Shown: positions 5,776-51,476, counted from the first letter of the stretch. The stretch: DNA of 51,479 nucleotides from Candidatus Omnitrophota bacterium (GCA_018824725.1 JAHJGB010000062.1:1-51479), one strand, 5' to 3'. Notes: a model not told the origin generated them from the sequence alone. A program made the numbers and translations.

Positions 5776-5921
5776 TTAATCGCTGAACTACGCGGAACTC
5801 CTCGATAAGCTCGGGGTAAACTCCACGCGGAACTACGCTGAAGCTAAACTCTAACTTCTGCGTATTTCCGCGTCTGTTCCGAGCGAAGCGAGGAACAGCT
5901 TCCGTGTTATTCCGCGATTAA
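5776..5921. repeat. Family C MITE-like element with TTAATCGC...GCGATTAA ends
   Basis: Shares GAACTACGCTGAAG..TAAC..CCGCGTCTGTTCCGAGCGAAGCGAGGAACAGCTTCCG with 12879..12991. Has terminal inverted repeats and an internal 7-bp-stem hairpin. Confidence 0.8.
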
Positions 5922-6392: not shown

Positions 6393-6412
6393 AAAACACT
6401 CCTTTGGAGAGC

Positions 6413-6449
6413 ATGGGAGTCCGACTCCCTATGGGAGTCGGACTCCCAT
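6413..6449. repeat. Family A REP-like hairpin
   Basis: ATGGGAGTCCGACTCCC-TAT-GGGAGTCGGACTCCCAT, a perfect 17-bp stem. Confidence 0.9.
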
Positions 6450-7144: not shown

Positions 7145-7165
7145 ATATTTAAAAAATATGTTAGC

Positions 7166-7290
7166 TTAAAAGTAAAAACGAAAAAGTCAAAACCACAATT
7201 AAAAATTCAAAACTTTACTATTTTTGTTTTCCGTTTTTTTAAATTTTAACTTTTGAGTTTCAGTTTTGCCTTTTTACTTTTAACTTTTTA
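7166..7290. repeat. Family B A-tract/T-tract inverted repeat
   Basis: AAAAGTAAAAACGAAAAAGTCAAAACCACAATTAAAAATTCAAAAC ... TTAAATTTTAACTTTTGAGTTTCAGTTTTGCCTTTTTACTTTTAAC. Overlaps the stop codon of the PIN/TRAM gene. Confidence 0.85.
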
Positions 7291-8295
7291 CTTCCTTGTG
7301 TTTTCCAAAAGTTTTCCAAAAATCATCCTGCCGGCTGCTGTCTGAAGCACGCTGCCCACTACCACATTTACGTTCTGGCCTATTAATCTCCTGCCGTTAT
7401 CCACTACTATCATTGTGCCGTCTTCCAGATACCCTACTCCCTGATTGTATTCCTTGCCTTCTTTGATAAGCCTTGTCTCAATCATTTCTCCGGGTAAAAC
7501 TACCGGCCTCAAGGAATTCGCAAGCTCATTAACATTCAACACCCTTATGCCCTGTATCTCTGAAACCTTATTCAGGTTATAATCGTTTGTGAATATCTTT
7601 GCGCTCAGGACTTTGGCCAGCTTTACTAGCTTCAGATCCACTTCTTTGATATCCGAGAAATCATCGTTATGTATCTTAACATCTATATTGGGATTTTTCT
7701 GGAGCTTTCCGAGTATATCGAGGCCTCTTCTCCCGCGTTCGCGCTTGAGGGAATCCGCAGAATCAGCTATCTGCTGCAATTCCTTTAATACAAAACGCGG
7801 GACTATGAATTTCCCATCCAGAAAACCTGTCTTGCATATATCCGCAATTCTGCCGTCTATAATAACGCTTGTATCCAGCAGTATCATCTCGTCTTTCTGG
7901 TCCTGCCTTGAAAATTTTACATAAGGTACTATTATATTAAACTCGTCCCTGCCTCTTATGGCCATGATCATGCCCAGATAGCAGAATACAAGTGTCAGCA
8001 CAACTCGCAAGGAATACACAAGATTTTTATCCAAAGATATAAGCGCAATGGTATCAGATACCAGCTTCGCCATTATGAGGCCGAATAACAGGCCGAAAAC
8101 AGCTGACGAAAGGCCCCGGACAGACACCTTCCTCGTGGTAAACTCTAGAATAATTATGAGTATGGCTATTAAAAAACCTATCGATGCGCCCAGCACGCTG
8201 AAATCAGCTGTGCCTGCCTGCACAAACGAGCCTATCTGAAAACCTATTATAACGCTGAGTATCACAAAGAATATACGTATAAAAATTAATGTCAT
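7288..8295 (-). CDS. Membrane-anchored PIN/TRAM domain protein (YacL-like)
   Basis: 335 aa. About 4 N-terminal TM helices, a PIN-like segment (ILLDTSVIIDGR) and a C-terminal TRAM-like barrel. The yacL-ispD-ispF order matches Bacillus. Confidence 0.75.
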   Translation of the reverse strand: MTLIFIRIFFVILSVIIGFQIGSFVQAGTADFSVLGASIGFLIAILIIILEFTTRKVSVRGLSSAVFGLLFGLIMAKLVSDTIALISLDKNLVYSLRVVLTLVFCYLGMIMAIRGRDEFNIIVPYVKFSRQDQKDEMILLDTSVIIDGRIADICKTGFLDGKFIVPRFVLKELQQIADSADSLKRERGRRGLDILGKLQKNPNIDVKIHNDDFSDIKEVDLKLVKLAKVLSAKIFTNDYNLNKVSEIQGIRVLNVNELANSLRPVVLPGEMIETRLIKEGKEYNQGVGYLEDGTMIVVDNGRRLIGQNVNVVVGSVLQTAAGRMIFGKLLENTRK

Positions 8296-9836: not shown

Positions 9837-9844
9837 AGCTTTGA

Positions 9845-9896
9845 ATGATGGGAGTCGGGCTTCCATCATTAGTGATGGAAGCCCGACTCCCATCAT
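9845..9896. repeat. Family A REP-like hairpin (24-bp stem)
   Basis: ATGATGGGAGTCGGGCTTCCATCA-TTAG-TGATGGAAGCCCGACTCCCATCAT, perfect. Confidence 0.9.
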
Positions 9897-12878: not shown

Positions 12879-12991
12879 TTAATCGCTGAACTACGCGGAA
12901 TATTACGCAGAACTACGCTGAAGTTAAACGTTAACTTCCGCGTCTTTCCGCGTCTGTTCCGAGCGAAGCGAGGAACAGCTTCCGCACAGTT
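12879..12991. repeat. Family C MITE-like element (shorter copy)
   Basis: Same ends and core as 5776..5921, but lacks the internal CTCCTCGATAAGCTCGGGGTAAACTCCACGCGGAA segment. Confidence 0.8.
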
Positions 12992-13000
12992 CCGCGATTA

Positions 13001-16597: not shown

Positions 16598-16623
16598 TTT
16601 AAACCTCCTAAATTATGCGATAA

Positions 16624-16757
16624 CTCAAAAGTAAAAACGCAAAAGTCAAAACCACAACTAAAAATTCAAAACTTTAATTTTCTTTACTTGTTTACCATTT
16701 CTTAATTTTAACTTTTGAGTTTTGGTTTTACCTTTTTACTTTTGACTTTTTACTTTA
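16624..16757. repeat. Family B A-tract/T-tract inverted repeat
   Basis: CTCAAAAGTAAAAACGCAAAAGTCAAAACCACAACTAAAAATTCAAAAC ... TTTTAACTTTTGAGTTTTGGTTTTACCTTTTTACTTTTGAC. Lies between mcsB and clpC. Confidence 0.85.
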
Positions 16758-18326: not shown

Positions 18327-18343
18327 AAAACCCCCTTATCTAA

Positions 18344-18457
18344 TTCAAAAGTAAAAACGAAAAAGTCAAAACTACAATTAAAAATTCAAAACCTCAGTTT
18401 TTTTAAATTTTAACTTTTGAGTTCTGGTTTTGCCTTTTTACTTCTAACTTTTTACTT
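18344..18457. repeat. Family B A-tract/T-tract inverted repeat
   Basis: TTCAAAAGTAAAAACGAAAAAGTCAAAACTACAATTAAAAATTCAAAAC ... TTTTAACTTTTGAGTTCTGGTTTTGCCTTTTTAC. Lies between ilvE and mcsA. Confidence 0.85.
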
Positions 18458-18460
18458 AAA

Positions 18461-19333: not shown

Positions 19334-20004
19334 AAAATCCTCCCGTCTTTCATTTCTATTATTTTATGCGCCTTTCGGGCAATCTCCTTATCGTGAGTGA
19401 CAATCACGATCGCAGTTTTATGCTTTTTATTCAGACTGAACAATATGTTCAATATCTCCTCTCCCATTTCAGAATCCAGGTTGCCTGTGGGCTCGTCGCA
19501 CAATAGCACCTTTGGATTATTTACCAATGCCCTTGCTATCGCAACTCTCTGCTGTTCTCCTCCTGAGAGTTCGCCGGGCCTATGATGCATCCTTTTCCCA
19601 AGCCCCACATCTTCTAATAAAATTTCAGCTCTGTTTTTTAACCCCTGCTTTTTGTCTTTTGTTTCCTGCCTTTTTATCAACGCCGGAAGCATTACGTTTT
19701 CCAATGCCGTAAACTCCGGTAATAAATAATAAAATTGGAACACGAATCCTATCTTTTGATTTCTGAATCTCGCCCTTTTGGCGTCATCCAGGCTGTAAAA
19801 ATCAGAATTGTCCAGAAATACCTTGCCCGAGCTTGGCTTGTCTATGCCTCCCAATATATGTAAAAGCGTTGACTTGCCTGCTCCCGAAGGGCCCACAATA
19901 GCGATTATCTCGTCTTTTCTTAATTCTAAGCTGACTCCCCTTAAGACATGCAGTTCTCTTTTGCCGTCTTTATATGTCTTATGAATATTGTCCGCTCGTA
20001 GCAT
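19324..20004 (-). CDS. lolD: Lipoprotein-releasing system ATP-binding protein (LolD-like)
   Basis: Walker A GPSGAGKST, signature LSGGEQQR, Walker B LLCDEPT. Start taken at MLRADNIHK (ATG 20004), 8 nt after the family E hairpin. Confidence 0.8.
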   Translation of the reverse strand: MLRADNIHKTYKDGKRELHVLRGVSLELRKDEIIAIVGPSGAGKSTLLHILGGIDKPSSGKVFLDNSDFYSLDDAKRARFRNQKIGFVFQFYYLLPEFTALENVMLPALIKRQETKDKKQGLKNRAEILLEDVGLGKRMHHRPGELSGGEQQRVAIARALVNNPKVLLCDEPTGNLDSEMGEEILNILFSLNKKHKTAIVIVTHDKEIARKAHKIIEMKDGRILWD

Positions 20005-20012
20005 GTCGTTAC

Positions 20013-20120
20013 GGCACACTAAAGTGTGCCCTACAATTCTGTCGCAAAGGCCTTCATGAGCACCTTATCGTAAGGGAGGTTTAAACCTCCCTTACGATAA
20101 GGTATTCTCGGCCTTTGCCT
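20013..20120 (-). repeat. Family E stop-to-start intergenic cassette
   Basis: GGCACAC-TAAA-GTGTGCC + CTACAATTCTGTCGCAAAGGCCTTCAT + an 18-bp-stem variable hairpin + ATTCTCGGCCTTTGCC. It fills the lolE-lolD gap exactly. Confidence 0.85.
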
Positions 20121-21302
20121 TTATTCATATCTGAGCGCTTCCACCGGCTCCATTTTTGCTGCCTGCCAGGACGGGTAAAGCGTTGATAATAAACTTATGA
20201 GCATCGCCGCAGCTATAACTGTTATTGAATCCAACAGCTCCAGGTTAACAGGCAGTCTGTCTATATAATAAATATCCTTGGGCAGTTGTATAAATTGATA
20301 TGTCTTTAATAAATACGAGAGGCCGAAGCCTCCTATGGCTCCCAGAACAGTCCCTGCAAAACCTATCAAAAAACCGTCCAGCATAAATATCTTTCTTATG
20401 CTTCTATTGTCAGCGCCTATTGATTTTAGTATGCCTATGTCTTTTGTCTTTTCCATTACCATCATTATGAGCGTGCTGGCTATATTGAAGCAGGCCACCA
20501 CCACAATAAGCGCGAGTATTATAAACATGGTTATCTTTTCAAGCTTCAGCGCACTGAAAAGGTTTTTGTTCAACTCAGACCAACTTCTGACCCAGTAATC
20601 AAACCCTATTTTTTCCTGAACATTTTTTTTTATGCTGTCTGCCCTGTTCACGTCATCCACCCTCACGCCTATGCCGCCTGCTACATTTCCTGTGGCATAA
20701 AAGGCCTGAGCGCCTTCAAGGTTTGTGAACACAAGGTTCATGTCATATTCAAACATTCCTGAATTAAATATGCCTGCTATCTTAAAGCTTTTCGGCTTGG
20801 GATCTGCCGCAGAAATAAGAGAAATAACATCCCCTATTTTTAAACCCAGTCTTAAAGAGAGCTCTTTTCCGATCAGGACAGTGTCTTTTTTAACTTCTAT
20901 CGTGCCGGATTCCAGATATTTTTGTATATTAGTGACGTTCTTTTCTCTTACCGGGTCTATGCCTCTTAATATCAGGCCCAAGACCTGTTCATCCTGCCTT
21001 ATTAAAGCCTGGCCGTTTATAAAAGGCGAACTTGCTTTTACATGGGGTATCTTATTTATCTCTGCTACAAGGCCGTTATAATCAGTTATCCCGCCTTCTT
21101 TTTCAATTATTATATGCGAATTTGTGCCGACTATCTTTTCGCGGAGGTCATTGTCAAAACCGCTCATAACAGCCAGCACCACAATAAGCGCTGTCACGCC
21201 CAGGGCTACGCCCATTATCGATATAAAGCTTATAATGGAAATAAACTTTTCCTTGCGCCTCGATATCAGATATCTAAAGCTGATCCACAATTCATATGGC
21301 AT
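20121..21302 (-). CDS. Lipoprotein-releasing system permease (LolC/E, FtsX family)
   Basis: 393 aa. TM1, a large periplasmic domain, then three C-terminal TM helices of FtsX type. Adjacent to lolD. Confidence 0.85.
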   Translation of the reverse strand: MPYELWISFRYLISRRKEKFISIISFISIMGVALGVTALIVVLAVMSGFDNDLREKIVGTNSHIIIEKEGGITDYNGLVAEINKIPHVKASSPFINGQALIRQDEQVLGLILRGIDPVREKNVTNIQKYLESGTIEVKKDTVLIGKELSLRLGLKIGDVISLISAADPKPKSFKIAGIFNSGMFEYDMNLVFTNLEGAQAFYATGNVAGGIGVRVDDVNRADSIKKNVQEKIGFDYWVRSWSELNKNLFSALKLEKITMFIILALIVVVACFNIASTLIMMVMEKTKDIGILKSIGADNRSIRKIFMLDGFLIGFAGTVLGAIGGFGLSYLLKTYQFIQLPKDIYYIDRLPVNLELLDSITVIAAAMLISLLSTLYPSWQAAKMEPVEALRYE

Positions 21303-21356
21303 ATTTATGCTTCCGGTTTTAATTGCGTTTTACTATGGGAGCCGGACTCCGATAGT

Positions 21357-22931: not shown

Positions 22932-23356
22932 TTACCAGCCCTGGCTAGCCTACGAAAAGACGCTCGTCCGCCCCAGCGAGGCGGACTTCGCTCCGCGGCT
23001 GATTCTCGCCCTTCGCGGAGTTTACCCTTCGCGGAGTTTACCCTGAGCCCTTCGCTGCGCTCAGGGTAAACTCCGCGAAGGGCTCCTCAGGACCAGGTCG
23101 AGACTTGACGAAACGTCTGGGCTCACCCCGTTTCTGGGCTGGGGTCTGAGGCGCATTAGAAAAATTTCGGCAAGAGTCCGCAAGGAATTACGGCGAAGTT
23201 TTTATACCGTCAAGACCACCTTCGGTATAAAAAATGAGCCGTAAGCCGTAGCGAACGGCGAAATTATTTCAGCGCCGAACGGCCCCAGCCCAGAGGCAGG
23301 GCACCGTGCCCGCTCGAAAAAGCGATGTTTTTCTTTAGGCTAGCTAGGGCTGGTAA
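22932..23356 (+). repeat. Family D large nested hairpin element (full copy with core 23138..23289)
   Basis: Outer stem TTACCAGCCCTGGCTAGCCTA.GAAAAG / TTTTC.TTAGGCTAGCTAGGGCTGGTAA. Conserved blocks are shared with 32582..32905. A perfect 24-bp-stem hairpin is nested at 23025..23082. Confidence 0.85.
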
Positions 23357-24859: not shown

Positions 24860-25367
24860 ATGCATATGGCCGGAATTAAACGCCATAGACACTCAGGACT
24901 CCAGAAAAATTTTCATAAATTAGAGAAACTGCCTCATCCGGTTGTTGATGACTTTATCCGTAGAAATTGTAAAAAACTGCTTGATGAAGAGATTGCTAAA
25001 GAATTAATAAAAAGGGGTTTAAAAAAGCTGATCCATGGGTAGTACGATATCGACGAAGAAAATTGGGGATCAAAAAATACCTTTACGGAGAAGTAAAAAA
25101 CCATAAGGTATGGATTCGTACGCAAGCTATAAAAAATATGGAAATAAATGTGAATTGTGCGGATTTAATTTAATTGTTGAAAGTCATCATCTTTTACCTA
25201 AGAATAAGGGCGGTTTACATGAAATTAATAACTTAATGGTGCTTTGTCCTAATTGCCATGCACTTATTACTAGAAAATATCTCGGCTTAAAAAACAGAAA
25301 AGATATACCTAGTCTTCAAAGAAAAATCGTTAAATTATACAAATCTTCCTATTCGTACTTTGGGTAA
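24860..25367 (+). pseudogene. HNH endonuclease gene broken by two -1 frameshifts, both in A6 runs
   Basis: Adding one A at 25021-25026 and one at 25131-25136 joins three frames into ...KRGLKKADPWVVRYRRRKLGIKKYLYGEVKNHKVWIRTQAIKKYGNKCELCGF...SHHLLP...NNLMVLCPNCH. Confidence 0.75.
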
Positions 25368-25606
25368 CAACATTTTTTATATTTCAATGGCTTGCCGGTT
25401 TTAGAATCTACTTTCCCGCATGGGCACGGATCATTGCGTCCGACTTTTGGCTCAGAGCGTTTATACTGTTCAACTGAAGGCCGTTCTTCATCAAGTCTTT
25501 CCTGAAACTCTTCTTTTCTTTGCACCTGGGGCGCTGGGATTTTAGACATAGGGGCTGCCTCTGACTTTACAAATTCCTGCGGCAAAGACTGAAACACGCC
25601 TCTCAT
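25349..25606 (-). CDS. secA: Detached C-terminal tail of SecA (linker plus SEC-C zinc motif)
   Basis: Ends in KVGRNDPCPCG...KYKKCC, the SecA metal-binding tail. It rejoins the secA frame if one copy of the 7-bp duplication at 25660-25673 is removed. Confidence 0.85.
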   Translation of the reverse strand: MRGVFQSLPQEFVKSEAAPMSKIPAPQVQRKEEFQERLDEERPSVEQYKRSEPKVGRNDPCPCGKVDSKTGKPLKYKKCCYPKYE

Positions 25607-25655
25607 GGGACTTTCTTCTCTCGCTGCCTGGACCTTGAATAAAAATTCTATTGTC

Positions 25656-28151
25656 TCATGCTTTATGCTTTATCATTCCCATAAACATGTCATAGCCTTC
25701 GTGCTGGTATTCTATGAGCGGGTCGCGCTGGCCGTATGCCCGGAGGCCTATCCCTTCCCTGAGATTATCCATTGCGTAAAGATGGTCTTTCCATTTTGTG
25801 TCAATAACCTGCAACATGATCATTTTTTCAATATGCTGCATCAAACCCTGGGGCATATTTTTTTCTTTTTCTATATACGCTGATTTTACCGTTTCAATCA
25901 GGTAATCCAGAATACCTTCCGCGTCTTTACCTTCGACCATCTCTTCTATATTCTGAATCTTTATATTAAATTTTGACCAGAGCCATTCATTGAATTCCGC
26001 GTATTTCCAATCAGCCTTGTGCACGTCAGGATTCATATACGTAATTATCGCATCATCCAGGACTTCTTCTATAATCTCATAAATATGCCCCCTGACATTA
26101 TCGCCCGTCAGGATTTTTTTTCTCTCTTCGTAAATGACTTCCCTTTGCTTGTTCATCACATTGTCGTATTCAAGCACATGTTTGCGTATATCAAAATTAT
26201 GCTGCTCCACTCTTTTCTGGGCAACCTCGATAGCCCTGCTTATGAGAGGGTGCTGGATATCCTGGCCTTCTTCTATGCCCAGCCTGTCATAAATAGAAGA
26301 AATCCTGTCCGACCCAAAAAGCCGCATCAGGTCATCCTCTAAAGATATATAAAATTTAGACGAGCCCGGATCGCCCTGCCTGCCTGAGCGGCCCCGCAGC
26401 TGATTGTCCACGCGACGGGATTCATGGCGCTCTGTTCCCATGATATGCAGCCCGGCTAATGCCGTAACCTTGTCGTGTTCTTCTTTTACTTTTTCCCTCG
26501 CCTCAGCCAGCCATTTTTCGCGCTCCTCCTGGCTCACATCTTTAGGCCCCATGCCTTTTGCCTTCAGCCAGTCATTGACCATAAATTCAGGATTTCCGCC
26601 GAGTAAAATGTCTGTTCCGCGGCCTGCCATGTTTGTAGCAATGGTAACCCCGTTCAGCCTTCCTGCCTGAGCCACAATAGTCGCTTCCATTTCATGATAC
26701 TTTGCGTTTAAAACATTGTGCGGGATACCGCGCCTTTTTAAAATAGAACTCATGCGCTCTGATTTTTCTATTGAGATAGTGCCTACCAGAACCGGCCTTC
26801 CTTTTTTATATAATTCCTCTATCTCGTTACACGCTGCGTTGAATTTTTCTTTTTCTGTTTTATAAATCACATCCGGATGATTTGTTCTTATTAAAGGCCT
26901 GTTCGTAGGTATTGAGACTGTGTCTAATTTATAAATGTGGCTGAATTCTCCGGCCTCTGTCATTGCAGTGCCTGTCATACCCGCGAGTTTTTTATACATC
27001 CTGAAATAATTCTGGAATGTGATTGTGGCAAGCGTCTGATTTTCCCTTTCTATTTTCATCCCTTCTTTTGCCTCTATCGCCTGATGAAGGCCGTCTGACC
27101 ATCTTCTCCCCGGCATCAAGCGGCCCGTGAATTCATCCACGATAATAACCTCGCCGTCTTTTACGACATAATCCACATCCTTTTCAAAAAGATTATGCGC
27201 CTTCAAGGCCTGGATCATGTGATGACGGTATTCCATAGTGGCTATATCATGCATGTTATCCACGCCGAGCATTTTAGCCGCCTTTATCTCTCCGTCTTCT
27301 GTAAGATGCGCTGTGTTTGCCTTTTCATCTACAATGTAATCATAGCCTTTTGAGAGGTCTATGCCTTTAAATTTTGCGTCTATTTCGTCTTTTTCCAGAA
27401 TAATTCTTCCTTTTAATTTCGGCACAATCTTATCGCATGTATAATACTTATCAGTGGACTCGTCTGAAGGCCCTGAGATAATAAGCGGGGTGCGCGCCTC
27501 GTCTATAAGAATGCTGTCCACCTCATCCACAATCGCATAATTCAATTCGCGCTGGACCATATCTTCTTTTCTGACAATCATGTTGTCTCTTAGATAATCA
27601 AAGCCGTATTCATTATTTGTGCCGTAAGTAATATCGCTGCCATAAGCAAACTGCCTCAACTGCGGATCCATATCATGCTGTATAACCCCGACCGTAAGCC
27701 CCAAAAATTCATATATCGGACCCATCCAGTCTCTATCCCTGCGCGCAAGATAATCATTCACCGTTATTATATGCACGCCTTTCCCGCTCAAGGCATTTAA
27801 ATAAGCAGGCAGAGTCGCAACCAGCGTTTTTCCTTCTCCTGTCGCCATCTCGCTGATTTTTCCCTGATGCAGCACGATACCGCCGATAAGCTGGGTATCA
27901 AAATGCCGCATACGCACTGTGCGCCTTGATACTTCCCGCACAACGCTGAAAGCCTCAGGCAAAATATCATCCAGAGTTTCTCCGTCCGCAAGCCTCTTGC
28001 GGAACCAGTCTGTCTTCGCGCGCAGCTCTTGGTCAGAAAGCTTCTGGACCTCAGGTTCAAAAGAATTTATCTTATCTACCAGAGGCTTCATCCTTTTGAT
28101 TTCCCGCTCGTTCTGCGTCCCGATAATCTTACTCAACACCCAATTAAACAT
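25656..28151 (-). CDS. secA: Preprotein translocase ATPase SecA, truncated by a 7-bp tandem duplication
   Basis: Motor motifs [32 protein letters not shown] and [10 protein letters not shown]. Start taken at [11 protein letters not shown] (ATG 28151). The upstream [13 protein letters not shown] stretch is repeat read-through. Confidence 0.95.
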
Positions 28152-28158
28152 ATATTTT

Positions 28159-28243
28159 GGCACACTAAAGTGTGCCCTACAGTTTTGTCGCAAAGGCCTT
28201 CATAAACAGGCACATTGAAATGTGCCTATTCTCGGCCTTTGCC
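28159..28243 (-). repeat. Family E stop-to-start intergenic cassette
   Basis: GGCACAC-TAAA-GTGTGCC ... GCAAAGGCC ... GGCACAT-TGAA-ATGTGCC ... GGCCTTTGCC. Starts 1 nt after the prfB stop and ends 7 nt before the secA ATG. Confidence 0.85.
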
Positions 28244-28244
28244 T

Positions 28245-29345
28245 TTAATTATTTTTTGTTTTCCATTTTAAGAATGTTTCCATAAATTCATCCAGCCCGC
28301 CGCTCATTACAGTATCAACATTGGATGTCTCGTGATCAGTCCTATGGTCCTTTACCATCGAATAGGGGTGCATAACGTACGAACGAATCTGGCTTCCCCA
28401 TTCTATCTTCTGCTTCTTGGCATATTCCTGTTCCAGTTCTTTCTTCTTCTCATCCATCTTCTTTTCATAAAGCTTTGCCTTTAATACCTTCATAGCGAGG
28501 GTTTTATTTTTAAACTGCGATCTTTCTTTCTGGCACTGCACGACAATACCGGTAGGGACATGCGTAATCCTGACTGCAGTTTCTAACTTATTTACATTCT
28601 GGCCGCCCTTGCCTCCAGCCCTGTAAGTATCGATCTTTAAATCAGATTCATTGATATCTATGACTATATCATCCGCAATTTCCGGTATAACATCCACGGA
28701 AGCAAAAGACGTATGCCGTCTTTTATTTGAGTCAAAAGGGGAAATCCTGACAAGCCGATGCACGCCTTTTTCCGATTTAAGGTACCCGTATGCATAAGGC
28801 CCTGTGATAATAAGGTCCGCGCTCTTCAAGCCCGCTTCTTCGCCCTGCAGCATATCAATCATCTCAATTTTATATCCTTTTTTTTCAGCCCACATCGAAT
28901 ACATCCTTAAAAGCATGCTGGCCCAGTCGCAGGATTCAGTCCCGCCCGCGCCTGAATGGATACTGACGATAGCATTGCTTATATCGCTTTCGCCGTTTAA
29001 AAGGCTCTTAAATTCCAGGCCTTCTAATTTTTTAGCCAGCTTATCCAGAGATTCCAAAACGTCTTTTATCGAACCTTTGTCCTCTTCATCCAGCACAACT
29101 GCCAGTTCCCCCAGCTCATCAAGTTCTTTCCTGGCTTCGAAATAGGGGTCCAGCATAGCGCGCACTGTCTTTAATTCCTGGATAATAGGCCTTGATTTCT
29201 CCTGGTCATCCCAGAAACCCGGATTCGCAAGCTGGGTTTCCAATTCTTTAAGCCTGATTTCGTTCTTATCTATACTAAGATACATTTTCATATCAGAAAG
29301 CTTAGCTTCTGCGTCTTTTAATTTTATTTTGATGTCATCTAACAT
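28245..29345 (-). CDS. prfB: Peptide chain release factor 2, uninterrupted (no programmed +1 frameshift site)
   Basis: SPF tripeptide (RISPFDS) and GGQ (GKGGQNVNK). Start taken at MLDDIKIKL (ATG 29345). Confidence 0.9.
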
Positions 29346-29698
29346 ATGAGATTTTGGCACACTAAAGTGTGCCCTACAATTTTGTCGCAAAGACCTTCAT
29401 AAACAGGCACATTGAAATGTGCCCATTCTCGGTCTTTGCCTTTACCTTCTATCTCCAGCAATTTCTTTTTCAAATCCTTACCAAACGCATATTCTCCGAT
29501 AGAGCCGTCTGAATGCACGACTCTGTGGCATGGGACTATTACAGGAAAGGGATTTTTATTAAGCGCATTGCCCGCTGCCCTGGCAGCAGCAGGCCTTCCG
29601 GCCTTTTTAGCCACCCAGGCATATGTCCTTACCTCTCCAAGAGGTATTTTCTTTACAACAGTATATACCTTTTTCTGAAACGAAGTCAATTGTTTCAT
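29339..29698 (-). CDS. ogt: Methylated-DNA--protein-cysteine methyltransferase (DNA-binding/active-site domain only) with a repeat-encoded C-terminal extension
   Basis: PCHRVV active site. The conserved domain ends near ...KKKLLEIEG. The last ~34 codons ([34 protein letters not shown]) are family E sequence. Confidence 0.8.
29356..29440 (-). repeat. Family E stop-to-start intergenic cassette
   Basis: Nearly identical to 28159..28243. Ends 10 nt before the prfB ATG and is read through by the ogt ORF. Confidence 0.85.
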
Positions 29699-29705
29699 AT
29701 ATAGC

Positions 29706-31052
29706 TTACAGCTTATAGCTTATTTTTCTCAGTTTATGGTGATATTTTAATGCGAACCTGTGGGCTTCATCCCTCACGCTCTGTATAAAATGCAATATCT
29801 CGGAGTCCCTGTTTATATCGAGCGGCTCGGATGAGCCCAGCGTATATATCCTTTCCTCCTGTTTGGCAATGCCGATCACAGGCACGTGGCTGAGATTTAA
29901 TTTTAAAAGCTCTTCATATGCCGCGGCTAGATGGCCTTTTCCGCCGTCTATTATAATCAGATCCGGAAGAATTTTCTTCTCTTCTTTCAACCTTTTGTAC
30001 CTTCTATGGACAATCTCTTTTATCATAGCATAATCATCAATGCCTTTTACATTTTTTATCCTGAATTTTCTGTAGTTTGATTTATCCGGCAGGCCGTTAT
30101 CGAAATAAACCATTGAGCCCGTGGCTTCTTTGCCGGATATATTCGATACGTCAAACGCCTCTATTTTCAAAGGCATGCTGGGAAGTTTTAAGATTTTCTT
30201 TAATTTTAAAGCGACATTGCCCCACGAGCTGTAATCAGCTGTCTTTCTGTCAGAAACCTCTAAAAGGGCCGAGAGCCTGTTGCGGATAACAGCTGCTTGT
30301 TCAAAATCTTTTTTATCGGCAAATTCTTTCATCTCGCCTGTCAATTCCTGTATCAATCTTGTTTTCTTGCCTTCCAGGAATAAGATCAGCTGCCTGACTA
30401 TCTCGTTATAAGATTTTTCATCTATTTTTTTCACGCAAGGGCCCATGCACTGCCCTATATGATAAGCTAGGCATACTTCCCCCGGAATTTTTTTACAAAT
30501 CCGCATGGGAAATATATTTTTCAATATAGTGACGGCATTTCTTAAAAGCCTTGCCTTTGTATAAGGCCCGAAATACCTGGAGCCGTCTTCAATCTTTTTT
30601 CTTGTTATAGTAAGCCTTGGGAATTTTTCGTTTAATGTGATTTTTAAAAGGGGAAAGCTTTTGTCGTCTTTTAATTCAACGTTATATTTCGGCTTTTTCT
30701 CCTTTATCAGGCTAGCTTCATATATCAGCGCCTCTTCTTCCGAGCCTGTAACCACGTAATCCAGGCCTTTAACCTTTTCCAATAGTAACATGTGTTTGGC
30801 TGTTTTCGGAGTTCGCTCCCGGAAATAGGTAGACACCCTTTTATAAAGGTCCTTGGCCTTGCCTATATAAATAGCCTCTCCCAAAGCGTCCTTCATTATA
30901 TAGACCCCGGGGAGGCGTGGGATATCCTTTATACATTCGCGGCCAGAGATCCGCACCTTTAAGGGTGCGGATGAACAATGGCCGCTCAGTATTTCGCTAC
31001 AGGAAACCGCAGGTTTTAACTCGCGGAGCTTCATTTTCTCTCTAACACCCAT
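29706..31052 (-). CDS. uvrC: UvrC-like excinuclease lacking the C-terminal (HhH)2 domain, with a repeat-encoded N-terminal segment
   Basis: 448 aa. GIY-YIG (PGVYIMKD...IYIGKAK), UVR motif (DFEQAAVIRNRL), RNase H-like endonuclease region (IEAFDVSNISG). Ends ...EAHRFALKYHHKLRK. An alternative ATG at 31034 overlaps the murJ stop. Confidence 0.8.
   Translation of the reverse strand: MGVREKMKLRELKPAVSCSEILSGHCSSAPLKVRISGRECIKDIPRLPGVYIMKDALGEAIYIGKAKDLYKRVSTYFRERTPKTAKHMLLLEKVKGLDYVVTGSEEEALIYEASLIKEKKPKYNVELKDDKSFPLLKITLNEKFPRLTITRKKIEDGSRYFGPYTKARLLRNAVTILKNIFPMRICKKIPGEVCLAYHIGQCMGPCVKKIDEKSYNEIVRQLILFLEGKKTRLIQELTGEMKEFADKKDFEQAAVIRNRLSALLEVSDRKTADYSSWGNVALKLKKILKLPSMPLKIEAFDVSNISGKEATGSMVYFDNGLPDKSNYRKFRIKNVKGIDDYAMIKEIVHRRYKRLKEEKKILPDLIIIDGGKGHLAAAYEELLKLNLSHVPVIGIAKQEERIYTLGSSEPLDINRDSEILHFIQSVRDEAHRFALKYHHKLRKISYKL
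30931..31038 (-). repeat. Family F two-hairpin element inside the uvrC 5' end, overlapping the murJ stop
   Basis: The reverse complement reads AAAATGAAGCTCCGCGAG..CTGCGGTTTCCTGTAGCGAAATACTGAGCGGCCA..TGGCCGCGAATGTAT. 108 nt equals 36 codons. Confidence 0.85.
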
Positions 31053-32581: not shown

Positions 32582-32905
32582 TTCTTTCTGACAGGCGGGC
32601 CTACGAAAAGACGCTCGCTTGCCCCAGCGAGGCAACCTTCGCTCCGCGTCGATACTAAGCAAAACGTCTGGGCTCGTCCTGTGGCAGCTGGGGTCTGAGA
32701 CGCATTAGAAAAATTTCGACAAAAATCCACAAGGAATTACGGTGAAGTTTTTATGCCGTCAAGACTACCTTCGGTATAAAAAATGAGCCGTAAACTGTAG
32801 CGGACGACGAAATTATTTCAGCGCCGAATGGCCCCAGCTACCGCAAGACACCATGCCCGCTCGAATCGACGAGGCTTTTCTTTAGGCCTGCCGGCCAGAA
32901 AGAAA
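32582..32905 (+). repeat. Family D large nested hairpin element (full copy with core 32687..32838)
   Basis: Outer stem TTCTTTCTGACAGGCGGGCCTA.GAAAAG / CTTTTC.TTAGGCCTGCCGGCCAGAAAGAA. The internal blocks match 22932..23356. Confidence 0.85.
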
Positions 32906-34326: not shown

Positions 34327-34353
34327 GATTGACAAGTTCAAAAACAATCTGTT

Positions 34354-34463
34354 AAGTAAAAAGTCAAAAGTAAAAAGGCAAAATTATTTAGTCTTAGGTT
34401 TACAGCTTATAGGTTTTTTGAATTTTTAATTGTAGTTTTGACTTTTTCGTTTTTACTTTTGAG
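34354..34463. repeat. Family B A-tract/T-tract inverted repeat (opposite orientation)
   Basis: GTAAAAAGTCAAAAGTAAAAAGGCAAAA ... TTGAATTTTTAATTGTAGTTTTGACTTTTTCGTTTTTACTTTTGAG. Confidence 0.85.
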
Positions 34464-34472
34464 TTTAGTATT

Positions 34473-36108: not shown

Positions 36109-36168
36109 ATGATGGAAGCCCGGGGCGATGGAAGCCCGACTCCCTATGGGAGTCGGGCTTCCATCATA
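36109..36168. repeat. Family A REP-like hairpin with a partial direct duplication of the left arm
   Basis: TGATGGAAGCCC, then GATGGAAGCCCGACTCCC-TAT-GGGAGTCGGGCTTCCATC. Confidence 0.9.
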
Positions 36169-45844: not shown

Positions 45845-45946
45845 ATCCTTCAGGCACTCCTAATTTGTCGTGCCTTCAGGATTAATTCGCACTTATCAAT
45901 TACGGATTTTTCCGAAATCCGTAATTGATGTGCTCATTAAAAACCC
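45845..45946 (-). promoter_or_regulatory. Family G conserved leader element (two hairpins), copy 1
   Basis: About 100 nt, shared with 51314..51416. Has a 15-bp-stem hairpin (ATCAATTACGGATTT / AAATCCGTAATTGAT) and a second hairpin with a covarying stem and a conserved loop (GACAAATTAGGAG on the minus strand). Confidence 0.7.
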
Positions 45947-46086: not shown

Positions 46087-46202
46087 AAATAATAAAGGCA
46101 GACTAAAGTCTGCCCTACAATTTTGTCGCAAAGACCTTCCATAAATACCTTCTGTAGGGCAGGTTTAAACCTGCCCTACAGAAGGTATTCTCGGCCTTTG
46201 CC
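46087..46202 (-). repeat. Family E cassette (variant copy)
   Basis: GGCAGAC-TAAA-GTCTGCC (compensatory changes relative to GGCACAC/GTGTGCC) ... 17-bp-stem hairpin ACCTTCTGTAGGGCAGG/CCTGCCCTACAGAAGGT ... GGCCTTTGCC. Abuts the TAG stop of the 46204 gene. Confidence 0.85.
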
Positions 46203-46203
46203 T

Positions 46204-48009
46204 CTATTCTTCTTTCCAGAACTTAAACGGCTTCTTTTTCTCAGGTTCCGGCTTTATAACCCCTGTTTCGCTTACAGTCCAGGTCCTTTCCGCAGGAACA
46301 GGGTCTATTTCATCTATATCTACTTTGGAATTCTTATTTACATCTTTCGCAGCCTGGACCTTAAAATAATGATTCCCGTCTTTCAGGTCTTTTTTGGACA
46401 CCGAGGTATCCCTGGACCAGACAGACCATTCCTCATCATCAAATTTCCATCTGAACACGCAATCATCTACGGTGCCTTTAAAGGTAAAAAGCGCTTCTTT
46501 TGACTTTGTCAATAAACTCGGCCCGCTTGTGATTATGGTGTCAGGCGCTATTATTATAAGTTCTATGGTATCGCTGATAACCTCTGATTCGTTTCCTGCT
46601 GTATCCTTAAACTTTACATAAACCTTGCGCGTGCCGCTTATAGGAGTCAGCATCCAGTTTTCCTTCTTGGTCTTAAACTGTACCCATTGTTCATTGTCAA
46701 AAACCCCATCGTTTGAAACCACCATACCGCTAACCTCTGTAGTGGAATCGCTGGCTCCAAACACAAGATTGACATAAACAGAATTGGTAACAGCATCCTG
46801 ATTATTTATTATTATATAACCTGTCGGGCCTTTTGTATCAACAGTAAAGCTCCAGACAACCTGAGAGGTTTTATTGCCTACCAGATCAGCCACTTCAATG
46901 GATACCACATTGCTGCCTTCGCTGAGAGGCGTAGACGGGATATATACTATGCTCTGGCTGTTCTCATCATATGCCGCGTCCACCACGGATTTGTTTATCT
47001 TCATGCTTATAGCGTTTGGATCCACGCCGCTCTTGTCGTCACTGGCTGCTATGGTAATCGTAGGCCTGTCAGACGCCAGCGTTGAGCCTTTTTCCGGAGA
47101 ATAATTCCCTATAACAGGGCTTCCTCTGTCTATCCATAATTCATAAGAAGCCATCTCTCCCCAATTGCCGGCTGAATTCTCAGCCTTAAGATTAAACACC
47201 CTGACGCCGTCCCCTAGCAGATCATCTGGAGTTTGATAAAAAGCGCCTGATGTGTCAGCCTTGTCATCAGGTATATATCCCCAGGCATAACTATACCCTA
47301 TGGGTTCCACTCCAGTCACAGGATATTCCCATGACATATAAGGATCTCCGCATCCCTGCCATAATTTTGAAGGGATATCTTTTCCGCCTGGCGCAGTCTT
47401 TGCCCATATTACAGGCATATCTACCTTGCCTGTTGTAAGCTTAAACCCGTTAGCAGCTGTTTCCCATCCTGAGTAATCGTATCCGTCGCATACTCTTACC
47501 CGCCATTTATAATCTATATAACCTTCGGTGGTAGGGAGTATAGGCGTGGTGTACTGCTGGGAATTGGTTTTAATAATACCGGAATCAACGTCTAATGTTT
47601 TAAAGTTATCCTTGGATAACTGAACCTGATAATAACGCTGAGGATCCTGATCCTTGTCTGTAACTACCCATTTCAATGTAAGAGGATTGTCAAGCGTAGC
47701 CTGGCCGTCGTTATATGCTAATATACTTATATCAGGGATAGCGTTTTTGGTGGGAAGCCACCCGCCGTATATTTTATAACTGGCGCCTGTAGCAACATTG
47801 GTGCCTAATGGGTAGCCCACGCTGTTCTCTGAGTTATAGCTCTTTGAAAACCCGCTCGAGCCTCCTCCGTCTGCCACCGCTGTATGCAGCTTATAATTTT
47901 TACTGCTGGATATGCTGGCGCTTGCAATGCCTGTAAAAACAAAAAAGGCCGCTATAAAAAATAAAGCGGTCTTTGAAATAAAATATCTTCTGAATTTAAT
48001 CCAATACAT
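46204..48009 (-). CDS. Secreted Ig-like/beta-sandwich multidomain protein
   Basis: Start taken at MYWIKFRRYF (ATG 48009), with signal peptide ...FVFTGIASA. Repeated Ig-like modules (e.g. SPEKGSTLASDRPTITIAASDDKSGVDPNAI...). Confidence 0.65.
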   Translation of the reverse strand: MYWIKFRRYFISKTALFFIAAFFVFTGIASASISSSKNYKLHTAVADGGGSSGFSKSYNSENSVGYPLGTNVATGASYKIYGGWLPTKNAIPDISILAYNDGQATLDNPLTLKWVVTDKDQDPQRYYQVQLSKDNFKTLDVDSGIIKTNSQQYTTPILPTTEGYIDYKWRVRVCDGYDYSGWETAANGFKLTTGKVDMPVIWAKTAPGGKDIPSKLWQGCGDPYMSWEYPVTGVEPIGYSYAWGYIPDDKADTSGAFYQTPDDLLGDGVRVFNLKAENSAGNWGEMASYELWIDRGSPVIGNYSPEKGSTLASDRPTITIAASDDKSGVDPNAISMKINKSVVDAAYDENSQSIVYIPSTPLSEGSNVVSIEVADLVGNKTSQVVWSFTVDTKGPTGYIIINNQDAVTNSVYVNLVFGASDSTTEVSGMVVSNDGVFDNEQWVQFKTKKENWMLTPISGTRKVYVKFKDTAGNESEVISDTIELIIIAPDTIITSGPSLLTKSKEALFTFKGTVDDCVFRWKFDDEEWSVWSRDTSVSKKDLKDGNHYFKVQAAKDVNKNSKVDIDEIDPVPAERTWTVSETGVIKPEPEKKKPFKFWKEE

Positions 48010-48082
48010 ATTTAAATCAATTGTACTGCAAAAAAATAAAAAATCAAGAATAATTTTTGGGATTAACTGCCCTAGCAATCAC

Positions 48083-48132
48083 TGATGGAAGTCCGACTCC
48101 CATCAGGATTGATGGGAGTCGGACTTCCATCA
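48083..48132. repeat. Family A REP-like hairpin (23-bp stem)
   Basis: TGATGGAAGTCCGACTCCCATCA-GGAT-TGATGGGAGTCGGACTTCCATCA, perfect. Confidence 0.9.
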
Positions 48133-48153
48133 TGCTTAGGCCCCCCTATAAAT

Positions 48154-51313: not shown

Positions 51314-51416
51314 ATCCTTCGGATACTCCTATTTGTCGTATCCTCAGGATTAATTCGCACTTATCAATTACGAATTTTTTCAAAATTCGTAATTGATGTG
51401 CTCATTAAAAAACCCC
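51314..51416 (-). promoter_or_regulatory. Family G conserved leader element, copy 2
   Basis: ATCCTTCGGATACTCCTATTTGTCGTATCCTCAGGATTAATTCGCACTTATCAATTACGAATTTT..AAAATTCGTAATTGATGTGCTCATTAAAAA. Lies about 45-160 nt upstream of the GspK-like start. Confidence 0.7.
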
Positions 51417-51439
51417 GCATCCTTTTAATGAGTACTATG

Positions 51440-51476
51440 ATGGAAGCCCGACTCCCTATGGGAGTCGGGCTTCCAT
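51440..51476. repeat. Family A REP-like hairpin
   Basis: ATGGAAGCCCGACTCCC-TAT-GGGAGTCGGGCTTCCAT, a perfect 17-bp stem. Confidence 0.9.

Follow-up and report, generated by a model that had tools for sequence, protein, structure and literature searches.

The window analysed here, the whole 51,479-nt stretch of Candidatus Omnitrophota DNA, carries four minus-strand copies of a short cassette, lettered A to D in Table 1. Three of them sit at junctions between closely packed genes: lolE-like and lolD-like (copy A), prfB and secA (copy B), and an MGMT-like gene and prfB (copy C). The fourth follows a 624-aa ORF and is trailed by a spacer of about 300 nt, with no gene close downstream. The MGMT-like identity comes from Pfam PF01035, found in the syntenic genes of relatives. 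A preliminary description of this DNA had placed four minus-strand cassettes at these positions, and both a core scan and a covariance model support it: the 29-nt cassette core has four matches at ≤2 mismatches in the window, a number reached by none of 100 shuffles, and the covariance model matches exactly these four copies and no others. The parts also follow one another as had been described, with TA(A/G)AGGCAAAGRCCGAGAAT at the left end, then a variable hairpin, whose length is 20 nt in copies B and C and 44 nt in copies A and D, the module (T)TTATG(G)AAGGYCTTTGCGACARAAYTGTAGG, and a terminal hairpin GGCASAC-TTTA-GTSTGCC, here called hairpin 2. Four details required adjustment, two of which concern these boundaries. 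The cassette begins at the stop codon of the upstream gene in copies A, B and D, whereas in copy C the corresponding TAA (29442-29444) is out of frame; and copy D, although correctly located, ends at 46097 rather than at 46087, positions 46087-46096 being a T-rich tail. One of the neighboring genes is itself unusual: the SecA ORF has 831 aa in the window against 921-925 aa in all syntenic relatives, and its C-terminal ~90 residues (the SEC-C region) are apparently split into an 85-aa ORF at 25349..25606, so that the reading frame may have shifted near 25606-25656, or the region may contain an insertion or have been wrongly assembled.

Table 1. Cassette copies, parts of copy B and adjoining gene boundaries in the window
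Feature	Position	Strand	Remarks
Copy A, long-form cassette, lolE-like/lolD-like junction	20013..20123	minus	81.1 bits
Copy A flanks	lolE-like stop 20121-20123; lolD-like ATG 20002-20004	minus
Copy B, whole cassette	28159..28247	minus	from prfB stop TAA to end of hairpin 2; 119.5 bits
Copy B surroundings	prfB TAA 28245-28247; A4 tail 28155-28158; secA ATG 28149-28151	minus
Copy B outer stem, 5′ arm GCAAAGGCC	28234..28242	minus	9 bp
Copy B central exchangeable hairpin GAAUAGGCACAU-UUCA-AUGUGCCUGUUU	28204..28231	minus	from folding and alignment
Copy B outer stem, 3′ arm GGCCTTTGC	28190..28198	minus	from folding and alignment
Copy B single-stranded linker GACAAAACTGTAG	28177..28189	minus	ends in GTAG tag, 28177-28180
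Copy B hairpin 2, GGCACAC-TTTA-GTGTGCC (REP-like stem-loop)	28159..28176	minus	100% paired in 16 short-form copies
Copy B 8-codon mini-ORF with stop	28177..28203	minus	judged incidental
Copy C cassette	29356..29444	minus	inside 3′ end of MGMT-like gene; 114.8 bits
prfB ATG directly downstream of copy C	29343-29345	minus
MGMT-like ORF running through copy C	29339..29698	minus	119 aa, against 99 aa in relatives
Copy D, long-form cassette	46097..46206	minus	flush with TAG stop 46204-46206 of 624-aa ORF; 75.2 bits

The same fold is predicted for every window copy: a 9-bp outer stem, an internal loop, an inner hairpin, a 13-nt single-stranded linker and hairpin 2, with folding z-scores of −5.5 to −10.3 and with the start-codon region predicted to be open. 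The covariation check that had been proposed for the hairpins was run on 16 short-form copies and gave a strong signal. The three helices are 98% paired in these copies, with eight pairs changed on both sides; none of 500 shuffles reached this, and slid controls were only 26-43% paired. Hairpin 2 is paired without exception (100%) and has double-sided changes at five of its seven pairs, while the outer stem is 99% paired, with one pair showing a compensatory change from G-C to A-U. Within the window, the arms GCAAAGGCC and GGCCTTTGC do enclose the variable hairpin as suggested, with a compensatory A..T change in copy C and a G-U pair in copy D, and the compensatory change GGCAGAC/GTCTGCC noticed in copy D is genuine; a further stem variant, GCAACGGCC/GGCCGTTGC, occurs at locus L016. 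Mismatches in the outer stem comprise eight G-T but only one A-C, and hairpin 1 is extended by two conserved G-U pairs. This excess of G-T over A-C, together with the conserved G-U pairs, indicates a structure of the sense strand, formed either by RNA or by single-stranded DNA. The linker is nearly invariant across the family, but the scan pattern itself fixed 11 of its 13 positions; likewise the GTAG tag at its end was part of that pattern, so that its invariance in the 40 copies so collected is by construction, although it is also present in two copies found by the covariance model alone.

The family reaches well beyond the window. When each species was represented by a single genome, an exact-pattern scan gave 11 loci, spread over six Omnitrophota MAGs, and a scan of metagenomes gave 30 contigs, mostly from groundwater-type samples. 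MAGs with the family are PEUD01, CAKKRB01, JAPLMC01, JAGVFL01, DNHS01 and JAUYDX01. There are about 40 non-redundant copies, to which the covariance model alone added the two just mentioned. No cassette was found in the viral contigs, plasmids or phages scanned, and the covariance model found no copy in the ~20-kb syntenic loci of five relatives (L042, L044, L045, L046 and L048). Four copies lie in the 51 kb of the window, and other MAGs yielded one to three exact-pattern matches each, often at contig ends. The depth in DNA run X1, about 500-660 over the element compared with 13-16 on its flanks, suggests tens of copies. Many copies lie ≤350 nt from a contig end, indicating that the repeat breaks metagenome assemblies. 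One locus (L020) has the upstream flank of L032 and the downstream flank of L002 joined at the cassette, a result either of copies having recombined or of a chimera formed at the repeat during metagenome assembly.

The cassettes are built as mosaics. The central hairpin can be replaced in other copies by GGCAGG-TTTTAA-CCTGCC or by a long GTAGGG...CCCTAC palindrome. It is preceded by TAGG, as hairpin 2 is, and in L019 hairpin 2 is a variant of the central hairpin, so that hairpins 1 and 2 are interchangeable. The long central modules are GTAGGGGAGG-TTTAAA-CCTCCCCTAC palindromes; besides occurring inside cassettes, these GTAGGGGAGG...CCTCCCCTAC palindromes also stand alone just past stop codons (L023:5173, L035:5629). 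At no fewer than nine loci the loop of hairpin 2 contains a further, nested GTAG module, AATAGCAGCTTATAGCAGCTGTAGG-hairpin-CAATCA, and the hairpin 2 stem that it interrupts covaries independently (GGCAGAC...GTCTGCC in L015). The leader of the window's MGMT-like gene (29699-29730) has AAGCTATAAGCTGTAAGCTATAT, which resembles the AGCAGCTTATAGCAGCTGTAGG module nested in hairpin 2 elsewhere in the family. Modules are lost as well as gained: a collapsed form TAAAGGCCTTTGCGAC... stands where the ortholog has a full cassette (L003 versus L026, L013 versus L024), and L006 is copy D without its central hairpin. The left boundary of the element is sharp, with TA in 34 of 35 copies followed by [A/G/T]AGGC, and information content shows no conservation upstream of it. 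On the right, AAAA follows hairpin 2 in about 80% of copies, beyond which conservation ceases. Neither a target duplication nor terminal inverted repeats are present at these boundaries.

Fixed distances to the flanking stops and starts had been described for the cassette, and preferred distances are indeed seen across the family. In about 35 of about 37 non-redundant copies that have the 5′ module, the upstream ORF stops between −7 and +17 nt from the left end of the cassette: it ends at the terminal TA(A/G) in about 24, at the internal GAATAG (+17) in six, 6-7 nt before the cassette in six, and deeper inside the element in two. All ~37 run in the direction of that ORF and of the flanking genes. 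On the right side, the ATGs of secA, lolD and prfB lie 7, 8 and 10 nt past the hairpin with no Shine-Dalgarno (SD) sequence between, as had been reported, and family-wide the next ATG is 5-11 nt past the last hairpin, leaving no room for an SD, in about 17 copies (15 independent sites). In about 16 others the start is 15-37 nt away, most of them with an SD-like motif such as AAGGAG or GAGGAGG (L005 and L012 have none), and for four copies a close downstream gene is absent. The N-terminus shared by the secA and prfB ORFs is, as supposed, a spurious extension contributed by the cassette. The accompanying statement that other genes here have clear SDs applies to about half of the window's genes, but about 40% start after AU-rich, SD-less leaders.

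The spacing to starts arises largely because the native junctions at A, B and C are 2-3 nt or overlapping; a copy inserted into such a junction will necessarily abut a stop codon at its left end and a start codon at its right. Tight junctions are common in this DNA, with native same-strand junctions in the window often measuring −23 to +18 nt. The placement of the cassette is nevertheless far from random. Junctions of ≤20 nt contain about 74 of the ~4,270 non-coding bases of the window (1.7%), and three of its four copies sit there. Copies are also flush with the stop where hundreds of non-coding bases are free, as at copy D, at L006 and at the site shared by L003 and L026. Tight junctions alone do not account for this stop-side placement, and target choice or selection is called for.

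The history of individual sites can be read from relatives, whose syntenic loci we collected through their PrfB homologs (identity to the window's PrfB: L014 96%, L046 94%, L044 92%, L048 89%, L042 87%, L045 78%). Site B, between prfB and secA, is filled in the window and empty in L014 and L046, where the genes are separated by a 3-nt spacer (...AACTAGATTATG, TAG-ATT-ATG). Site A, between lolE and lolD, is filled in the window and empty in L046 (TAGACATG, TAG-AC-ATG) and in L042 (TAAAAATG, TAA-AA-ATG). Site C, between MGMT and prfB, is filled in the window and in L014 and empty in L046, L044, L048, L042 and L045; in these five relatives the end of MGMT extends 44 nt into prfB, whose ATG has GGAG 7 nt ahead of it (GGAGACAGAGAATG). 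Because sites A, B and C are found empty in relatives at 87-96% PrfB identity, we take the insertions to be recent. Copy C goes back to the ancestor shared by the window and L014, since both have it, whereas copy B, missing from L014, is younger than their split. The insertion of copy C put about 95 nt between prfB and its native SD and gave the MGMT-like protein a different C-terminus. The MGMT-like ORF stops at the internal TAG of the cassette in L014; in the window this codon is TGG, and the ORF therefore runs on through copy C, gaining about 34 residues. The event at copy B was not a clean insertion, since the last four prfB codons differ from those of both empty relatives. Five sites are occupied in two species each (copy C and L014, copy D and L006, L004 and L011, L003 and L026, L013 and L024), a pattern that could reflect retention by selection rather than mere tolerance. 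A 449-aa protein of one Omnitrophota MAG (P0048) joins the MGMT DNA-binding domain (PF01035) to RF2 domains, and is probably a gene call that fused the overlapping MGMT and prfB genes.

Other repeats occupy the same kinds of places. In L048 a hairpin AACTTTACAA(T/A)TCGTGC...TTGTAAAGTT lies in both the prfB-secA and the lolE-lolD junctions (L048:7545-7606 and L048:15013-15105), and in L044 a tandem TATCCGCTA/TATACGCTA array lies in a corresponding junction (L044:18579-18644); the presence of these unrelated repeats marks the junctions as recurrent landing sites for different palindromic repeats. The window itself holds at least five other intergenic repeat families, some of them likewise just past stop codons. 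An AT-rich repeat of about 125 nt has five copies (1587-1711, 7154-7294, 16613-16756, 18333-18458 and 34352-34466), each filling an intergenic gap of 116-164 nt and having inverted symmetry within it (AAAAGTAAAAA...TTTTTACTTTT). Another family, the GC-rich perfect palindrome GATGGAAGCCCGACTCCCTATGGGAGTCGGGCTTCCAT of 38 nt, is found at 8-45, 6412-6449, 21316-21353, 36127-36164 and 51439-51476, with tandem halves at 9843-9896 and 48080-48133; several of its copies are 4-12 nt past a stop, which makes hairpin repeats flush after stops a general trait of this genome. Three further intergenic repeats have two copies each: 23138-23289 and 32687-32838 (152 nt, 91% identity), 5825-5920 and 12905-13000 (96 nt, 89% identity), and 45863-45946 and 51331-51414 (84 nt, 90% identity, holding a long hairpin).

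We conclude that the cassette represents a new family of small mobile palindromic repeats of Omnitrophota that land in tiny intergenic gaps, and that it is probably a REP/BIME-like non-autonomous element, mobile within species-level divergence. The opinion in the preliminary description that it does not look like random REP insertion has to be given up: the GTAG-tagged hairpin fits the definition of a REP, the element is modular, nested and deletion-prone, and its sites are empty in relatives. The cassette may be understood as a conserved scaffold that houses REP-type units, each an unpaired GTAG with a short GC-rich hairpin, in the manner of a small BIME. It is spreading, or has spread recently, into the far 3′ ends of genes and into the very small gaps that separate co-directional genes. 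Its left end offers stops in all three frames (the TAA at position 1, the TAG at +17 and the TAG within GTAG), and its right end is a hairpin with an A-tract, so that the start codon lies in A/U-rich RNA free of structure, as in the ~40% of local genes that lack an SD. These two properties would explain why insertion is tolerated. Hairpin 2 has no U-tract, and read-through transcription is accordingly to be expected.

As for how the element moves, we infer a single-strand transposase of the HUH/Y1 type, either RAYT or the TnpA of IS200/IS605. The indications are the GTAG-hairpin units, the same-strand hairpins at both ends with no duplication, the TA 5′ of the left end, the strict strand bias, and the location of the cassette top strand on the G-rich strand (GC skew is −0.16 on the plus strand). 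Among 1,599 ORFs (≥70 aa) from 410 kb comprising the window and the collected loci, a regular-expression search found none with an HUH...YxxxNP motif, and phmmer with E. coli RayT gave no match.

Once transcribed, the hairpins of such a mobile element would probably act as REPs do, as a barrier to 3′ exonucleases, as a partial terminator (copy D), or as an element that modulates termination and initiation where the two genes meet. An effect of the cassette on translation or on mRNA processing is plausible, and several readings give such an effect a larger part. One is that the cassette serves mRNA processing or stability, as REPs do in E. coli, blocking 3′-5′ exonucleases, partially terminating transcription, or both. 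It would then fix how strongly the upstream gene is expressed relative to the downstream one, and a cut near hairpin 2 could release a downstream mRNA with a short leader. We entertain this only tentatively as the primary role; it is compatible with a mobile-element origin, and on present evidence an adaptive role of this kind and a side-effect of insertion look alike. In its favor, the hairpins are very stable, as their z-scores show, and stand directly after ORFs; hairpin 2 of copy D with its T-tract scores as a terminator; and RNA coverage, from sparse contigs of one metatranscriptome run, includes two contigs with element-like sequence. Intrinsic termination is unlikely within operons, where A rather than U follows hairpin 2, and we rejected a Rho-independent terminator for the operon-internal copies on account of this A-tail, a T-rich tail being present only in copy D and its ortholog L006. 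Liang, Rudd and Deutscher (2015) reportedly found that REPs about 15 nt or less from a stop lower translation of the upstream gene. REPs act as stabilizers and as partial Rho-dependent terminators (bioRxiv 10.64898/2026.03.23.713779).

A different emphasis would make the cassette a mobile junction adaptor, whose left end stops ribosomes in any frame and whose right end is a portable, SD-independent initiation region. We regard this as rather unlikely. Such an adaptor could enter coupled essential genes (MGMT-prfB, prfB-secA, lolE-lolD) and replace the native SD or coupling while expression is kept, and the flush stop placement would then result from targeting of ORF ends or from selection for adaptor function. 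The genes secA, prfB and lolD are essential in model bacteria. With their starts 7-10 nt behind hairpin 2 and their native coupling lost, and with prfB deprived of its SD as well, the right end of the cassette must support initiation. Of the arguments for the functional role proposed in the preliminary description, this is the strongest.

The same observations invite the reading that the cassette is an intercistronic element selected by the host and kept for organizing translation at the junction. On this account a terminating ribosome would melt the outer stem, and hairpin 2 with the A-tract would form an SD-independent initiation or standby site; alternatively the AGG of GUAGG might be brought near the AUG, with the downstream essential gene translated by coupling or by de novo initiation. 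The bimodal spacing to starts is consistent with this, the ~17 SD-less copies at 5-11 nt being set against longer spacers (19-37 nt) that nearly always come with a clear SD, as is the predicted lack of structure in the start region. So too are the separation of prfB from its native GGAG by ~95 nt at site C, the interruption by copies A and B of 2-3-nt coupled junctions before lolD and secA, which still need to be expressed, the G-U pairs that favor the sense strand, and the five sites occupied in two species. However, the closest relatives do without the cassette at sites A, B and C, about 40% of the window's genes are SD-less in any case, and a third of the copies precede an ordinary SD or no gene at all (D, L006, L003/L026). 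Moreover, the invariant linker and GTAG tag are better explained by recognition of DNA by a protein. We consider host selection for translation an unlikely primary explanation.

One form of translational role would run through an 8-codon mini-ORF, MK(A/V)FAT(K/E)L. This ORF is present in copies A, B and C as described, but it is not a family-wide feature: 27 of 40 copies have it, with an ATG or GTG start and a TAG stop that coincides with the GTAG tag, while in 13 of 40 it is absent or frameshifted, including four with tight geometry (L015, L016, L023 and L032). A reinitiation relay through the mini-ORF is thus contradicted by a third of the copies, four with tight starts among them, and the failure of the relay to be conserved counts against the translational reading as a whole. 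That the peptide (MKAFATKL) has a leader or regulatory function of its own is very improbable. No SD precedes the mini-ORF, and its synonymous positions vary no more than the rest, which places the constraint on the nucleotide sequence.

The mobile REP-like element remains the preferred interpretation. Matched filled and empty junctions before essential genes are natural experiments on SD-less initiation and on translational coupling; at prfB, the native SD has been displaced by about 95 nt through a structured insert. For annotation, the cassette yields spurious N-terminal ORF extensions as well as a real C-terminal extension of the MGMT-like protein.

Several known systems offer comparisons. 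Rfam gave no match at gathering score in the window, with chance-level hits only (E ≥0.84) around copies B and C, and a scan for tRNA and tmRNA found none. We considered an integron attC-like site, with a stop at the left end of an imperfect palindrome, but rejected it because the cassette flanks syntenic housekeeping genes and has no RYYYAAC/GTTRRRY cores. Phage T4 gene 38-type initiation regions use a hairpin to bring a remote SD close to the start codon. The cassette likewise has a hairpin a few nt before the AUG, with a purine-rich GUAGG just 5′ of it, but the likeness goes no further: the AGG is weak, with both of its G residues inside the stem. Like the Correia elements of Neisseria and other TA-targeting MITEs, which are often co-transcribed and able to alter the expression of neighbors, the cassette is small, abundant and intergenic, with TA at its left boundary; unlike them it lacks end-spanning terminal inverted repeats and a TA duplication at the right end, and it shows a strict strand bias. 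A TA-duplicating MITE (IS630/Tc1-like or Correia-like) was rejected since there is no conserved TA at the right end and the inverted repeat is internal.

The PATEs derived from IS200/IS605, with their single-strand 'peel and paste' transposition, share with the cassette the same-strand hairpins at both ends, the lack of terminal inverted repeats and of target duplication, and a short conserved sequence, here TA, directly 5′ of the left end; this TA may be part of the element rather than of the target. Targeting of the lagging-strand template, said to have been described by Ton-Hoang et al. in 2010, reportedly leads to the arrangement seen here, with the cassette top strand on the G-rich (leading-sequence) strand. 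The cassette differs from these PATEs in that no cognate TnpA was found in the 410 kb searched.

The closest likeness is to the GTAG-tagged REPs and their BIMEs (Di Nocera et al. 2013, PMC3733652; Nunvar et al. 2010, PMC2817692). As characterized in the sections of PMC3733652 used here, a GTAG-tagged REP has a terminal unpaired GTAG, a 6-13-bp stem and a short loop; sub-families differ by complementary stem changes and G-T pairs, and the REP termini supply TAG stops to flanking ORFs. The cassette has TGTAG abutting the GC-rich 7-bp stem and 4-nt loop of GGCACAC-TTTA-GTGTGCC, double-sided changes at five of seven hairpin-2 pairs and at three other pairs, and an extragenic location following a same-orientation ORF in every copy. 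Similarly, it lies between co-directional genes, its termini provide stops, its presence varies among close relatives, and the mosaic of its units keeps conserved spacers. The cassette unit also has the form of the REPs next to E. coli rayT (GGTAGGCCGGATAAGG...). GTAG-tagged REPs lie outside genes, mostly past the ends of ORFs and between co-directional or convergent genes; they typically number more than 100 per genome and have a cognate RAYT gene (a Y1 HUH transposase) that is usually REP-flanked. No RAYT gene was found with the cassette in 410 kb. Omnitrophota is not named in the same sections of PMC3733652, a survey of eight phyla, and our literature search yielded no publication that connects this phylum with REPs. 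In their classic form, REPs and REPINs mostly make inverted pairs, but the tagged hairpins 1 and 2 of the cassette are head-to-tail, an arrangement called rare in PMC3733652. Alternating or inverted units forming a larger hairpin, as in BIMEs and REPINs, are not seen, the only GTAG...CTAC palindromes being the long central modules. The cassette also departs from GTAG-tagged REPs in its conserved ~53-nt scaffold (the 9-bp outer stem and internal loop), and in its strict orientation with transcription, its right end often being 5-11 nt from a start. It would thus widen the known range of GTAG-tagged REP-type repeats to include Omnitrophota, whose genomes are compact and whose members are largely uncultured, and would do so in an unusual form, head-to-tail, scaffolded and strictly co-oriented, that enters the tightly coupled junctions of essential genes.
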